DNA of 64,000 bases from Escherichia coli (GTDB lineage: Bacteria; Pseudomonadota; Gammaproteobacteria; Enterobacterales; Enterobacteriaceae): assembly GCF_003334305.1 (NCBI RefSeq), contig NZ_QOWS01000020.1; one strand, 5' to 3'. The notes beneath the pieces were generated by a model. The model ran no database searches. It was given only the letters and a program-made list of their open reading frames with translations, and was not told where the DNA came from. A program made the translations under genes and the position numbers. Below, in pieces: positions 11,606-19,654 of the stretch (position 1 is the stretch's first letter; each line of letters opens with the position of its first letter).

Positions 11606-12301
11606 TTACTGCCCGTAATAGGCATTGGCCCCATGCTTACGCAGGTAGTGCTTATCCAGCAGTTCGTTTTGCATCGCAGGGAGCTGCGGCGCAAGCTGGC
11701 GCGAGAATAGGCCCATATAGGCGCATTCTTCGAGTACTACGGCGTTATGCACGGCATCGGCGGCGTTTTTACCCCATGCGAACGGGCCATGAGAATGCAC
11801 CAGCACCGCCGGGATTTGTGCCGGACTCCTGCCACGTTCTTCGAAGGTTTCAATGATCACTTCGCCGGTCTGATATTCATATTCGCCGTTAATCTCCTCT
11901 GCGGTCATCTGTCGCGTGCAGGGGATGGCACCATAGAAATAATCAGCGTGCGTGGTGCCCCAGGCGGGGAGATCCAGCCCGGCCTGCGACCAGATGGTGG
12001 CGTGGCGTGAGTGGGTATGCACAATGCCACCGATTTCGGCGTAGCGACGGTAAAGCGCCAGATGCGTTGGCGTGTCGGACGAGGGCTTTTTGCTACCTTC
12101 CACCACCTTGCCGCTGGCTATCTCAACCACCACCATATCGTCGGCGGTCATCACGTCGTACTCGACGCCGGAAGGTTTGATTACCATCCATTGCCGCGTG
12201 TCGTCTACCGCGCTGACATTGCCCCAGGTGAACGTCACCAGATGGTGAGCGGGAAGCGCCAGATTCGCCGCCAGCACGTCGGCTTTCAGTTGCTCTAACA
12301 T
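11606..12301 (-). CDS. sgbE: L-ribulose-5-phosphate 4-epimerase
   Basis: 231 aa class II aldolase/epimerase; last gene of yiaK-S operon. Confidence 0.85.
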
Positions 12302-13155
12302 ATAAATCCAGCCTCCTGCATACGCGCTTCAATCCAGCGCCGCGCCTGAATGATCTCCAGCACCGGCTCTTTGGCTTTTTCGGTCCACATCTCAATCAGG
12401 AAAGAACCGCGATAGTTCAGTTCATGCAGCGTTTTGAAGATGCCAACGAAATCGACGCAGCCTTCGCCAAACGGCACATCACGGAACTGTCCGGGGCTTT
12501 GCCCGGTGACTGGCTGGGTGTCTTTCAGGTGGATCGCGGCGATACGGTCAATGCCCAGTTTCAGTTCGGCGGGAACATCATTGCCCCAGGCGCTGAGGTT
12601 GCCGACGTCCGGGTAGACGGTGAACCACGGCGAGGCGAGCATCTCGTCCCATTTTTTCCATTTGCTGATGGAGTTCATAAACGCTGTATCCATAATCTCC
12701 ACCGCCAGCATTACTTGTGATGCCGCCGCCTGTTCGACTGCCCACGCCAGCCCTTCAGCAAAACGTTGCCGGGTGCCTTCGTCGTGGTCTTCGTAATAGA
12801 CGTCATAACCTGCCAGCTGGATGGTGCGAATGCCGAGATCGCGCGCCAGGCGAATCGCTTTACTCATGATTTCCCGCGCCCGTTCGCGCACTGCCTCGTC
12901 ACGGCTACCAAAAGGAAAGCGACGATGTGCGGACAGGCACATCGACGGGATCCCAACACCCGTTTCGATCATCGCGGCAACCAGCGAAGTCCTTTGTGCG
13001 GTGCTCCAGTCAAGACGTGAAAGCCGTTCGTCGGTTTCATCCACCGACATTTCGACAAAATCAAAACCGCAGCTTTTTGCCAGCACCAGCCGCTCCGGCC
13101 AGGAGAGATCTTTCGCCAGCGCCTTTTCATAAATCCCTAACGGATGATTACGCAC
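12295..13155 (-). CDS. sgbU: putative L-xylulose-5-phosphate 3-epimerase
   Basis: ORF track extends to 13245; trimmed to GTG 13155 ([14 protein letters not shown]...) which overlaps sgbH stop by 8 nt; 286 aa. Confidence 0.8.
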
Positions 13156-13810
13156 GCTTGCCTCCCCAGATAGCGTCGATTTGCGCATGGAAATCGCCAG
13201 CCACCTGCGCCGGATTTGCTGAGCCTGCCAGTGCTCGCCCGGCAATAAACGCTTTCACGCGAATATCTTTAAACAGCGGCAGGTCAGCAGGGGTAATCCC
13301 GCCGGTAATGGAAAGCTCAAGGCCGATATCGGAAAGCGCCTTCATGCGTGCCAGATCGGCTTCGCCCCACTGTTGCCCGCTGGCCTGTGCATCACGACCG
13401 TGATGATAAATCGCCTGCCGCACGCCAATACGATGCCAGTCGCGGGCGTCGTCCAGCGTCCAGTTACCGAACAGCTCGATCTGAATTTCACCACCGCAGC
13501 GTTGCGCCATCGCGTGGCCTTTTTCCACCGTCGCGAGCGGTGCGGCGCAGATGATGGTCATCCAGTTAGCGCCTGCGCCAAATGCCTGTTGCGCGAGCGT
13601 TTCACCAGCGTCGGCGACCTTCCAGTCGGCAACGATGATTTTGTCAGGGCACTGTTCGCGCAAGGCTTTCACCGCGCCAAGCCCTTCGTTTAAACAGAGA
13701 ATGGTGCCCGCTTCGACAATATCGACGCTGTCTTTTAACTGCGTCACGTCGCGCTGTGCGGCTTCAAGTGATGAGTGGTCGAGTGCCAGTTGCAGAAGTG
13801 GTCGGCTCAT
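13148..13810 (-). CDS. sgbH: 3-keto-L-gulonate-6-phosphate decarboxylase
   Basis: 220 aa OMP-decarboxylase-like fold protein; overlaps lyxK stop. Confidence 0.85.
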
Positions 13811-15303
13811 AATATGTGCTCCTTGATGCGGGCGTGAAAGCCCTGAAGTGCGGCAATGAGATGCTGATAGCGTTGGTATTTTTGTTGGTAAAGCTGATGG
13901 GCGGTCATATCCGGCAGCAGGGTGCGTACCGGGTGCTGTAAGTCACGTTGAGCTTCGCTGAAATCGCGATAAACTCCGGTGCCGACACGGGCGGCAAGTG
14001 CCGCGCCAAAACAGCCGGTTTCTTCCACCTGCGGCAGCTCGATACGCAGACCGCTGACGTCCGCCAGCATTTGCATCCAGACATCGGAGTGCGCCGGGCC
14101 GCCAGTGACGCGCAGGGTGTGCACATCAGTAAAACGTTCGCGCATCCGGTTGAGGTGGGTCATATGGCTGAACACCACCCCTTCATAAATGGCCTGCAAC
14201 AGGTGTGCGCGGGTGTGAATGGCCTGCATCCCGTAGAAACCGCTGGTCATCTCGAGTCCGGCGTTGCTGCCGTACAGGAACGGCAGGAAAAAGAGATCGC
14301 CACCGGCCTTCGGCAAGCTGGCAACGGCCTGGTTGATCTCATCAAACGAGATTTCTCCCCACTGTGCGGTAAACCATTCGAGGTTGCCGGAAGAGGTGGG
14401 GCTGGCTTCGTGAACGATAAATTCACCATCGTTAACGTAGCGACCATAGACATACGGATGCGCTTCACCGTCACGTAAACCGCGGGTTATGCCGCTGGTC
14501 ACCGCCCAGGTGCCCATCACCGCATTAAGGGTAAATTCGTCTTCGATCCCGGCGCAGAGTGCGGTGGAAACCACATCAAACAGGCCGCCGACAACGGGCG
14601 TACCCGCTTTCAGACCGGTCAGTACGGCTGTCTGAGCGGTGATCTCCCCGCAGATTTCGGCAGATCCGACAACAGGCGGCAGGGCGTGATTGATTTCAGC
14701 AATCCCCAGCCAGTCGGTGAGGCACGGGTCATATTCCCCAAGACTCATGTTGTAGAGGTTGGACTCGGAAATATTGCTCTCTTCACAGCCTTTGACGCCG
14801 GTTAAACACCAGCGCAGGTAGTCGTGCGTCATCATCACGCAGCCAATTTGCGCGTAGCGTTCCGGTTCGTGCTCTTTCAGCCAGCGTAACAGCGACACCG
14901 GATGCCCGGTCCACAAGGTTTGTCGGGTCAACGGGTAGAGTTTTTCCGGGATGCCATCTTCCTGCCAGCGACGAACGATTTCCATCGCCCGGCGATCCGA
15001 GGACAAAATGGCGTTACCGAGCGGCTTGTTGTTTTTATCCAGCAAAAACAAGCCTTTTCCTTGTGCGGAGATACCGATACCGACAATTTGTTCCCCGCTA
15101 ACGCCGGAATGGGTAAGCAGTTCGCGAATGACAGCCATGCAGCATTGCCACAGTTCTGCCATATCGCGCTCTGCCCAACCTGGCTGCGGGCTTAATGCGC
15201 ACAGCGGCAGGCGCTGCACGCCTGCCTCCCGGCCTTCGCGGTCATACAGCCCGGCTTTCAGCCAGCTACCGCCACAATCTAACCCCAGCCAGTATTGCGT
15301 CAT
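13807..15303 (-). CDS. lyxK: L-xylulose / 3-keto-L-gulonate kinase
   Basis: 498 aa FGGY-family sugar kinase. Confidence 0.85.
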   Translation of the reverse strand: MTQYWLGLDCGGSWLKAGLYDREGREAGVQRLPLCALSPQPGWAERDMAELWQCCMAVIRELLTHSGVSGEQIVGIGISAQGKGLFLLDKNNKPLGNAILSSDRRAMEIVRRWQEDGIPEKLYPLTRQTLWTGHPVSLLRWLKEHEPERYAQIGCVMMTHDYLRWCLTGVKGCEESNISESNLYNMSLGEYDPCLTDWLGIAEINHALPPVVGSAEICGEITAQTAVLTGLKAGTPVVGGLFDVVSTALCAGIEDEFTLNAVMGTWAVTSGITRGLRDGEAHPYVYGRYVNDGEFIVHEASPTSSGNLEWFTAQWGEISFDEINQAVASLPKAGGDLFFLPFLYGSNAGLEMTSGFYGMQAIHTRAHLLQAIYEGVVFSHMTHLNRMRERFTDVHTLRVTGGPAHSDVWMQMLADVSGLRIELPQVEETGCFGAALAARVGTGVYRDFSEAQRDLQHPVRTLLPDMTAHQLYQQKYQRYQHLIAALQGFHARIKEHIL

Positions 15304-18176: not shown

Positions 18177-18644
18177 TTAATTCAGCGCCGTTAATGCGAC
18201 TTTAACCACAATTTTTCGTATCTCAGAGGCTGTTTGCAAAATACAACCTGGTCGGTGAACATCCTGCGGAAAGAAAATTGCGTAGCTGCCCGGTATCATT
18301 TCTATAAATGATTCATGTTCACTGTCATGATAAAAAATAATATCGCGCTGCTCTAATAGTGATTCGCTGACTTTATTATTTCCCGTATCAATAGCAATGC
18401 CGATTTTCTCTTCACCCCACGCCAGAAACTGAATATCGATATACCGACGATGCACTTCCGGACGGTTTTCCACCGCTTCGCGTGTGGTTAAATCGATAAT
18501 TTGCGCATAAATATTTTTGCCGTCGATTTCGACAACGCCCGGCTCCAGGGCGTTGAAATCGGTAGCGCGCAGAAAATCGAGCGCCTTTTCAATGGCGGCG
18601 GGCAAACGGCACGGATTGGGCTGCGCGATATGTCCAAAAATCAT
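18177..18644 (-). CDS. yiaL: YhcH/YjgK/YiaL-family protein (DUF386)
   Basis: 155-aa ORF; operon position. Confidence 0.75.
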
Positions 18645-18655
18645 GACTTATCTCC

Positions 18656-19654
18656 TTATAACGCCTGGATTTTGGCCCACACGCTGTCATCAACGGTAAT
18701 ACCGTTACGGCGGTTTTCGGCCAGCAGGGTAGTAAATTCGTGGCCGGGTAAGCGGATGGCCTGGTTTTCGTCAGCGCGTTCAGCGGTAGTAACGTAATCC
18801 ATGATACGTTGCAGCTTGGCATCGCGGGTGGGACCGTCGATAAGCTTGTCCACTTCAATGGCAATAAAAATTTGTGAAATGCCGTATTCGTCGCTGTTGT
18901 CCTGGGTGACTTCGGCAACCGATGCGCCGTCGGAAAGGAGAGTAGCGATCATATCCAGCACAATCGACATGCCAGAACCTTTCCAGTAGCCCATCGGCAA
19001 AATGCGGCGATTCTTCTCGATAACGCCAGGTTCTTTGGTCAAATTGCCCTCATCATCAAAGCCACCATCGACCGGGAGCTGACGGCCCGCCAGGCGGTTA
19101 ACTTCTAACATGCCGTAAGAGAACATCGACATCGACATATCGACCATGGTGATCGGCGTGGAAGGAATGGCGACGATCAGCGGGTTAGTGCCAATGCGAC
19201 ACTCTTTTGCGCCCCACGGCGGCATTACGGCGATGGAGTTGGTCCAGCAAATGCCAATATAGCCTTTTTCCGCCGCCTGCCAGCCGTAGCTGCCGCCGCG
19301 CATCCAGTGGTTGGCATTACGAAGTGCCACCAGACCAATACCGTGATCGGCAGCCAGTTCAATGGCGCGATCCATCATCTTTTTCGCCGTCAGGTTGCCG
19401 ATCGAACGCTGGGCATCCCACTGTTCAATTGCGCCGAGGCTGGTTATACGTTTGGGTTGGGCATCAGGAATGATATCGCCGTTTTCCAGTTGTTGAATGA
19501 AACGAGGGAAACGATTAACGCCGTGAGAATAAACGCCGGATTCGGTGGTGCGGGCGAACATCTCTGCACAGGCGTCAGCCGTTTCGCTGTCAACGCCGCG
19601 TGAAATTAAGACCCGATTAAAGGCTGCTTTTAACTGCTCAAATGTCACTTTCAT
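18656..19654 (-). CDS. yiaK: 2,3-diketo-L-gulonate reductase
   Basis: 332 aa; first gene of operon, divergent from yiaJ. Confidence 0.85.

Follow-up and report, generated by a model that had tools for sequence, protein, structure and literature searches.

A cluster of nine genes with a divergent regulator gene was analyzed in a 64,000-nucleotide stretch of Escherichia coli DNA (contig NZ_QOWS01000020.1; hereafter the window). The nine open reading frames (ORFs) lie on the minus strand and span positions 11606-19654, from the yiaK start at 19654 to the sgbE stop at 11606, and the ORF listing, the RefSeq annotation and NCBIfam matches agree that they are arranged on this one strand in the order yiaK, yiaL, yiaM, yiaN and yiaO, then lyxK, then sgbH, sgbU and sgbE (Table 1). 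An earlier note made from the DNA letters (the original prediction) had drawn the same limits, gene content and order, with the trio of a tripartite ATP-independent periplasmic (TRAP) transporter between yiaL and lyxK and a divergent IclR-type gene, yiaJ; all of this holds, the limits to the exact base. Over the 10,001 bases from 10500 to 20500 the window matches E. coli A7 (NZ_CP028767) with 100% identity, and the RefSeq annotation of this identical DNA gives exactly these gene names. Some part of the same interval is matched in 5,425 of the 5,426 complete E. coli genomes, and the operon was found in 4,997 of them. Seven of the eight gene junctions fall within -8 to +12 nt, the exception being a gap of 117 nt between yiaL and yiaM, and the tight junctions are accompanied by Shine-Dalgarno-like sequences. 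Such tight packing on a single strand indicates a real gene cluster rather than a chance pattern and, as far as sequence can tell, supports co-transcription, and the 117-nt spacer with its hairpin would leave room for processing or for an internal signal between yiaL and yiaM.

Family calls were made with NCBIfam profiles, the bit scores being compared with curated cut-offs. YiaK, YiaL, YiaM, YiaN, SgbH, SgbU and SgbE were matched full-length above the cut-off, and YiaO at the level of the DctP subfamily; the homology search with curated models bore out the TRAP and ula-paralog families to which the products had originally been assigned. In particular, YiaK reached 671 bits against NF009750 (cut-off 316), with residues 1-332 of 332 covered, and two structures deposited as "oxidoreductase yiaK" (PDB 1NXU and 1S20) match it at 748 bits. 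YiaL scored 132 bits against the N-acetylneuraminate anomerase model, under the cut-off of 160, and its closest solved relative is HI0227/YhcH (1JOP). The match of YiaM to NF007374 is full-length, PF04290 is recorded for the YiaM cluster, and about four hydrophobic segments were seen in a crude hydropathy scan. YiaN also matched TIGR00786 (dctM) at 523 bits (cut-off 268), and SgbE matched TIGR00760 (araD) at 445 bits. For sgbU, the longest ORF begins at a TTG at 13245, and the annotated start was adopted instead. The matches of LyxK to FGGY-family models all stayed under their equivalog cut-offs (the top one, XylB, at 252 bits versus 380), as did those of YiaJ to KdgR, PcaR, IclR and AllR; HTH_IclR and IclR_C domains are found in YiaJ orthologs. 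Membership of LyxK in the FGGY kinases and of YiaJ in the IclR-type regulators is clear, but no equivalog cut-off was reached, so that their specific names are taken from the RefSeq annotation of the identical DNA.

Judged by these family assignments, YiaMNO is a TRAP transporter, with membrane subunits of the DctQ and DctM types and an adjoining DctP-type binding protein, whose gene starts 12 nt past the end of yiaN; no ABC ATPase family was found by NCBIfam among the nine operon products. By inspection, the N-terminus of YiaO, MKLRSVTYALFIAGLAAFSTSSLA/AQ, resembles a signal peptide in its basic start (K2, R4), hydrophobic core and SLA/AQ end. A PDB search with YiaO matched 74 DctP/SiaP-type relatives, with no YiaO structure among them. 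SiaPQM of Haemophilus influenzae is a DctP/Q/M-type system like YiaMNO: residues 27-325 of YiaO align with residues 4-302 of SiaP (155 bits), which brings SiaP residue 147 to about YiaO 169-170, and Arg169 of YiaO lies within the motif LKGLKIRT. This residue may correspond to SiaP Arg147, the carboxylate-pairing arginine of the family. SiaQM is a fused Q-M protein, unlike YiaM and YiaN, which are encoded by separate genes, and the ligand of SiaPQM, sialic acid, differs from that of YiaMNO. Sialic-acid systems, too, come with a DUF386 protein of the YhcH/NanQ family, to which YiaL belongs. The original remark that TRAP transporters are uncommon in E. coli is in keeping with a distant blastn search, which found one yiaN-like place per genome at nucleotide identities of at least about 65%, a weak test in that paralogs below about 65% are undetectable by it. 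K-12 is not known to have a TRAP system besides YiaMNO.

Comparison with known systems revealed that the yiaKLMNOPQRS operon of K-12 with yiaJ/plaR is like the window in its nine genes and in their order, lengths and spacing, including the 117-bp gap between yiaL and yiaM, and that a divergent IclR repressor and a PlaR box are common to both. K-12-derived genomes are about 98.2% identical to the window over 11.9 kb, with only allelic differences of about 2%, and the strain of the window is closest to A7, not to K-12. We conclude that the locus represents the nine-gene, K-12-type form of the E. coli yiaK-S operon (yiaKLMNO-lyxK-sgbHUE), together with the divergent repressor gene yiaJ/plaR; to this reading, along with the route and regulation proposed for it below, we give a probability of roughly 0.88. 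The operon is intact, ordinary and previously described, and the label "established, not novel" given to it at the outset was apt. The identities of the genes, their order and integrity, their family memberships and the presence of the operator were observed in the present analysis, which confirms that a well-characterized operon is present and intact; it offers no new biology, and its value is that of a correctly annotated landmark.

Table 1. Features of the yiaK-S locus and its control region (positions in the window)
Feature	Position	Strand	Basis
yiaJ (plaR), IclR-family repressor	19855..20703	+	ORF of 282 aa; RefSeq "IclR family transcriptional regulator YiaJ"
Divergent yiaJ-yiaK control region, 200 bp	19655..19854	.	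Sequence inspection; literature
CRP-like core TGTGCCGTAGTTCACG, 8 of 10 core positions	19811..19826	.	Read by eye
Candidate yiaK promoter, -35 TTGCTT, 17-nt spacer, -10 TATATT	19722..19750	-	Scan score 8 of 12
PlaR/YiaJ operator, palindrome ATTTGAAATCAAGTTTCGCAT	19704..19724	.	Palindromized published PlaR box, 2 mismatches
yiaK, 2,3-diketo-L-gulonate reductase (3-dehydro-L-gulonate 2-dehydrogenase)	18656..19654	-	332 aa; NF009750 equivalog
yiaL, YhcH/YjgK/YiaL (DUF386) family protein	18177..18644	-	155 aa; TIGR00022, 221 bits vs cut-off 45.5
yiaL-yiaM spacer, 117 nt, sole long gap; yiaX1 position in ten-gene operons	18060..18176	-	Junction table
Stem-loop in yiaL-yiaM spacer, 14-pair stem, AUAAUUUAGGUUGC / GCAACUUGAAUUAU	18086..18120	-	RNA fold
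Divergent block, K-12-type vs NC101-type haplotype	about 16260..18300	-	yiaL 3' end, spacer, yiaM, yiaN, yiaO start
yiaM, TRAP small membrane subunit (DctQ type)	17586..18059	-	157 aa; NF007374, 325.6 bits vs cut-off 260
yiaN, TRAP large membrane subunit (DctM type)	16306..17583	-	425 aa; NF011634, 919.6 bits vs cut-off 800
yiaO, periplasmic DctP-type solute-binding protein	15307..16293	-	328 aa; TIGR00787 dctP, 369 bits vs cut-off 175
lyxK, FGGY-family kinase (L-xylulose / 3-keto-L-gulonate kinase)	13807..15303	-	498 aa; RefSeq "lyxK: L-xylulokinase"
sgbH, 3-keto-L-gulonate-6-P decarboxylase (UlaD family)	13148..13810	-	220 aa; NF009831, 449 bits vs cut-off 294
sgbU, L-ribulose-5-phosphate 3-epimerase (UlaE paralog)	12295..13155	-	286 aa; TIGR00542, 522 bits vs cut-off 272
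sgbE, L-ribulose-5-phosphate 4-epimerase (AraD/UlaF paralog)	11606..12301	-	231 aa; NF009002, 511 bits vs cut-off 386
GC-rich hairpin, 8-bp stem GCCGGGGC/GCCCCGGC, without T-run	11576..11597	-	9 nt past sgbE stop codon

Binding of the repressor to the yiaJ-yiaK spacer has been reported as a PlaR peak in genomic systematic evolution of ligands by exponential enrichment (gSELEX; PMC6958661) and likewise as a peak in chromatin immunoprecipitation with exonuclease digestion (ChIP-exo; PMC6237786). The match to the PlaR box at 19704-19724 is the single one in the window, and the runner-up within the spacer has 6 mismatches. As 27 of 100 shuffled sequences also contained at least one match, it is the location of this site that carries weight, and not the statistics. 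The candidate promoter overlaps the PlaR box, in agreement with a report that this box overlaps the yiaK promoter as mapped (PMC6958661), and transcription from it would begin about 60 nt upstream of the yiaK start codon ATG. Scans for consensus promoters and terminators gave counts not above the shuffled expectation, and both the yiaK promoter and the hairpin after sgbE went uncalled in them. In RegulonDB, CRP targets include yiaJ and yiaK, and the spacer is reported to have multiple CRP sites (PMC3105977). The CRP-like core noted here is only suggestive, because the full 22-mer CRP consensus, allowing up to 3 mismatches, found zero matches in the window. In vivo, repression of the operon by YiaJ has been demonstrated by ChIP-exo and RNA-seq, with derepression in a yiaJ deletion (PMC6237786), and L-ascorbate and galacturonate have been identified as effectors of repression by PlaR (PMC6958661).

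In addition, two hairpins were predicted, one inside the operon and one just past it. The yiaL-yiaM spacer folds at -28.7 kcal/mol (z = -2.8), and in the E. fergusonii spacer one U-G pair of the stem has become C-G; this stem-loop might act in processing or stability, or else as a palindrome to which a protein binds. The hairpin after sgbE folds at -19.9 kcal/mol (z = -3.6), none of 200 shuffles folding equally well. It escaped the terminator scan because a T-tract is missing, and it is probably the 3' end of the transcript or a stabilizing hairpin. A scan of positions 9000-22000 against Rfam gave no match inside the operon or the control region; matches were found at 21285-21403, between ysaA and avtA, with ES036 (CssrF) above the gathering score and naRNA4 below it.

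With the ligand, the effectors and the activities of the enzymes drawn from the literature, we propose the following route. Outside the cell, L-ascorbate would oxidize to dehydroascorbate, the ring of which would open to yield 2,3-diketo-L-gulonate. YiaO would capture this compound in the periplasm, its carboxylate being held by the conserved arginine of the family, probably Arg169, and would pass it on to the small subunit YiaM and the large subunit YiaN for import, which we infer to be driven by an ion gradient and not by ATP. In the cytoplasm, YiaK would reduce 2,3-diketo-L-gulonate with NADH to 3-keto-L-gulonate, LyxK would phosphorylate the latter, SgbH would decarboxylate the phosphorylated product to L-xylulose-5-phosphate, and SgbU followed by SgbE would epimerize this to D-xylulose-5-phosphate, which would enter the pentose-phosphate pathway. 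YiaJ/PlaR, bound to its palindrome over the yiaK promoter, would repress the operon until relieved by L-ascorbate or galacturonate, with a contribution from cyclic AMP (cAMP)-CRP. The final three steps to D-xylulose-5-phosphate are shared with the E. coli ulaABCDEF/ulaG regulon, since SgbH, SgbU and SgbE match the UlaD, UlaE and UlaF/AraD family models. The ula regulon differs in its uptake of ascorbate by a phosphotransferase system, yielding ascorbate-6-phosphate, and in having no TRAP transporter, YiaK-type reductase or kinase, and its repressor is UlaR (PMC6237786, and in part general knowledge). The assignment of 2,3-diketogulonate as the substrate of YiaMNO goes back to Thomas et al. (2006), as cited by PMC4324149 and PMC7660916. 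Of the checks proposed in the original prediction, the binding of 2,3-diketo-L-gulonate by YiaO has, according to papers citing the same study, already been published, and so has the induction of a yiaK-lacZ fusion by L-ascorbate and galacturonate.

Several points weigh against this interpretation. YiaL has no assigned step in the pathway, and for LyxK, YiaJ and YiaO no NCBIfam equivalog specific to the protein scored above its cut-off. About 10% of genomes, including those of O157:H7, lack the operon or carry a broken copy, and it is hence dispensable. L-xylulose was earlier proposed as the YiaMNO substrate (Plantinga et al., 2004, as cited in PMC6958661, PMC7660916 and PMC4324149). Moreover, the PlaR effectors act in vitro at millimolar concentrations (PMC6958661), and K-12 is reported, in an unpublished remark, to show no aerobic growth on ascorbate as the sole carbon source (PMC6958661), so that the natural role of the operon is not fully settled. 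To this extent the original description of the inducer as uncertain stands; it went too far in that L-ascorbate and galacturonate are known effectors (PMC6958661) and repression by YiaJ has been shown (PMC6237786).

The proposal involving L-xylulose is the main rival. It holds that the operon naturally serves to take up and break down two rare pentoses, L-xylulose and L-lyxose, with diketogulonate as a side activity; YiaMNO would import L-xylulose, LyxK would serve as L-xylulokinase, and SgbU and SgbE would complete the conversion. Besides the substrate claim of Plantinga et al. (2004), it can draw on the fact that the operon was first tied to the use of L-lyxose (both as cited in PMC6958661 and PMC4324149). 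The RefSeq name of LyxK is indeed "L-xylulokinase", and the top NCBIfam match of this protein, though under cut-off, is the xylulokinase model. However, DctP-type binding proteins normally need a carboxylate ligand, and L-xylulose has no carboxylate for them to use. In addition, the later study of Thomas et al. (2006), as cited in PMC4324149, gives 2,3-diketogulonate as the substrate, and catabolism of pentoses would leave both YiaK, with its structures 1NXU and 1S20, and SgbH without a role. On balance, we consider a primary role in pentose use improbable and retain the assignment to 2,3-diketo-L-gulonate.

The nine-gene arrangement is one of two forms of the operon within E. coli. In 1,056 of the 5,426 complete genomes, including NC101 (gene at 9061-9981 of locus L002), Nissle 1917 and sequence type 131 (ST131), a tenth gene, yiaX1 (DUF4862; Pfam PF16154), lies between yiaL and yiaM, whereas the window, K-12 and E. 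fergusonii have only the 117-bp spacer at this position. The term "nine-gene" used in the original prediction is correct for the window and K-12 but does not extend to the species as a whole. The ten-gene NC101-type operon has the same regulator, the same neighborhood (ysaA, avtA) and nine genes orthologous to those of the window, from which it differs by the extra yiaX1, and its YiaK, YiaO, LyxK and Sgb enzymes are 96-99% identical in protein sequence to those encoded here. The two haplotypes also differ over a block of about 2 kb (Table 1), in which the sliding-window identity to NC101 is 58-85%, compared with 92-99% in the flanks; at the protein level, YiaM is 74% and YiaN 85% identical, and the flanking proteins 94-99%. 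The nucleotide identity of yiaN among E. coli is cleanly bimodal, the distant blastn search of the 5,426 genomes returning 3,841 at at least 90% identity, 1,056 at 60-80% and 529 with none. On the basis of equal counts, the 1,056 genomes with a divergent yiaN are presumed to be the same as the 1,056 with DUF4862. The G+C content is uneven along the operon (yiaL 45.3%, yiaM 43.7%, and lyxK, sgbH, sgbU and sgbE 56-59%, with a window mean of 51.1%), which fits a mosaic origin.

Comparison with other enterobacteria bears on how the two forms arose. The ten-gene layout is also present in Salmonella, E. albertii, E. whittamii, Pseudocitrobacter and Affinibrenneria; the nine-gene layout occurs with the same 117-bp spacer in E. 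fergusonii (97% identical, 114 of 117 positions by hand count), and a K-12-type YiaM in some E. albertii. The gene arrangement in outgroups suggests that yiaX1 was lost in the nine-gene form. Each YiaM and YiaN allele lies at about the same distance from Salmonella and from its counterpart, and such sequence distances do not tell which allele is older. Searches of the 117-bp spacer against ten-gene loci by blastn (word size 7) and tblastn found no relic of yiaX1/DUF4862, the alignment being limited to about 20 nt before the yiaM start codon and to the end of yiaL, and it cannot be demonstrated from them that the spacer is the scar of a deletion. In Klebsiella pneumoniae, yiaJ, yiaK, yiaL, lyxK, sgbH, sgbU and sgbE are ordered as in the window, but the TRAP trio is replaced by a single major facilitator superfamily (MFS) permease (yiaX2), preceded by the DUF4862 gene. 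This succession identifies DUF4862 with the "yiaX1" of the published yiaKLX1X2PQRS operon, which has been tied to aerobic ascorbate use (Campos, 2008, as cited in PMC6958661 and PMC4324149).

An AlphaFold model of YiaX1, based on 84 diverse homologs, is a TIM barrel of the xylose-isomerase-like type and of high confidence, with a predicted local distance difference test (pLDDT) score of 96.2. Its top solved matches, at 10-14% identity, are L-rhamnose isomerase, xylose isomerase, endonuclease IV, ketose 3-epimerases and UlaE, and among its invariant residues are E160, H161 and D163, which form an E-H-x-D motif, and D240 and H242. From this model one would naturally guess at an isomerase or epimerase that acts on sugars and depends on a metal; a full-text search of the literature library covered found no paper on DUF4862. 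It is conceivable, though we regard it as rather unlikely, that the nine-gene operon derives, in reduced and mosaic form, from an enterobacterial operon of ten genes in which yiaX1 supplies a pathway step that is missing here. If so, YiaX1 might, for example, isomerize or epimerize a keto-acid derived from diketogulonate, its absence could explain the "cryptic" outcome of growth tests with K-12-type strains, and the complete pathway would be held by NC101-type strains (Nissle, ST131), Salmonella and Klebsiella. About one fifth of the complete E. coli genomes carry the ten-gene form, with an isomerase-like enzyme and very different TRAP membrane subunits. As nearly all experiments have been performed with the nine-gene operon of K-12, conclusions on substrate range and on the reasons for the apparent silence of the operon may not transfer between the two forms.

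A further explanation is that the operon is a silent, decaying remnant kept by drift in this lineage, "cryptic" since the nine-gene form is without a step. The entire operon is deleted in O157:H7, the operon is absent from 429 genomes and yiaN from 529, IS1 and IS5 insertions occur in individual strains, yiaX1 is lacking from the nine-gene form and found in Salmonella, Klebsiella, E. albertii and NC101-type E. coli, and the reported failure of K-12 to grow aerobically on ascorbate alone (PMC6958661) points in the same direction. Decay is, however, hard to reconcile with nine intact ORFs that match their family models end to end, with the retention of the nine-gene form at at least 90% nucleotide identity in 3,841 genomes and at 96-98% protein identity in E. 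fergusonii, and with a repressor, an operator and an effector response that are intact, derepression yielding transcripts (PMC6958661, PMC6237786). We judge this explanation slightly less probable even than a primary role in pentose use. The suggestion, mentioned in PMC6958661, that yiaMNO takes up unidentified osmoprotectants, or serves some other mainly non-catabolic uptake inside a catabolic operon, can practically be set aside, given that the transporter genes are translationally packed among catabolic genes with which they share promoter and repressor and that the ligand given by the citing papers is a catabolic substrate.

Other variation was observed at the locus in addition to the two operon forms, and the operon is sporadically inactivated in individual strains. 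O157:H7 genomes lack the whole yiaK-sgbE operon together with the 5' part of yiaJ, which is most of that gene (in O157:H7 NE92, the equivalent of 11606-20560). In strain J31 an IS1 insertion sequence lies between yiaN and yiaO and truncates yiaN (5293-5990 of locus L003), and strain 30EVA2 has an IS5 element with a partial deletion. Between yiaT and sgbE, the window contains two annotated pseudogene scraps, at 11281-11469 and 11473-11574, a "hypothetical" fragment and an AraC-family C-terminal fragment. These are remains of an island of about 4.2 kb whose three genes code for a glycoside hydrolase of family GH127, a transporter of the MFS and a regulator of the AraC type. Many E. coli strains have this island in intact form between yiaT and sgbE (e.g., 1981-6412 of locus L055); in O157:H7 NE92, the AraC gene of this island abuts the yiaJ remnant.

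Far from the operon, the window and A7 are identical from position 1 to about 60,400, after which they differ in the number of ldr repeat units. At 60280-61062 the window has the unit with the Ldr type I toxin genes in two direct copies, which share 98% identity and lie 483 bp apart; Tandem Repeats Finder reported nothing in the ldr region, and the two copies were detected by a separate repeat search. As three ldr copies are annotated in A7 and two are present in the window, the strain of the window is one repeat unit off A7.

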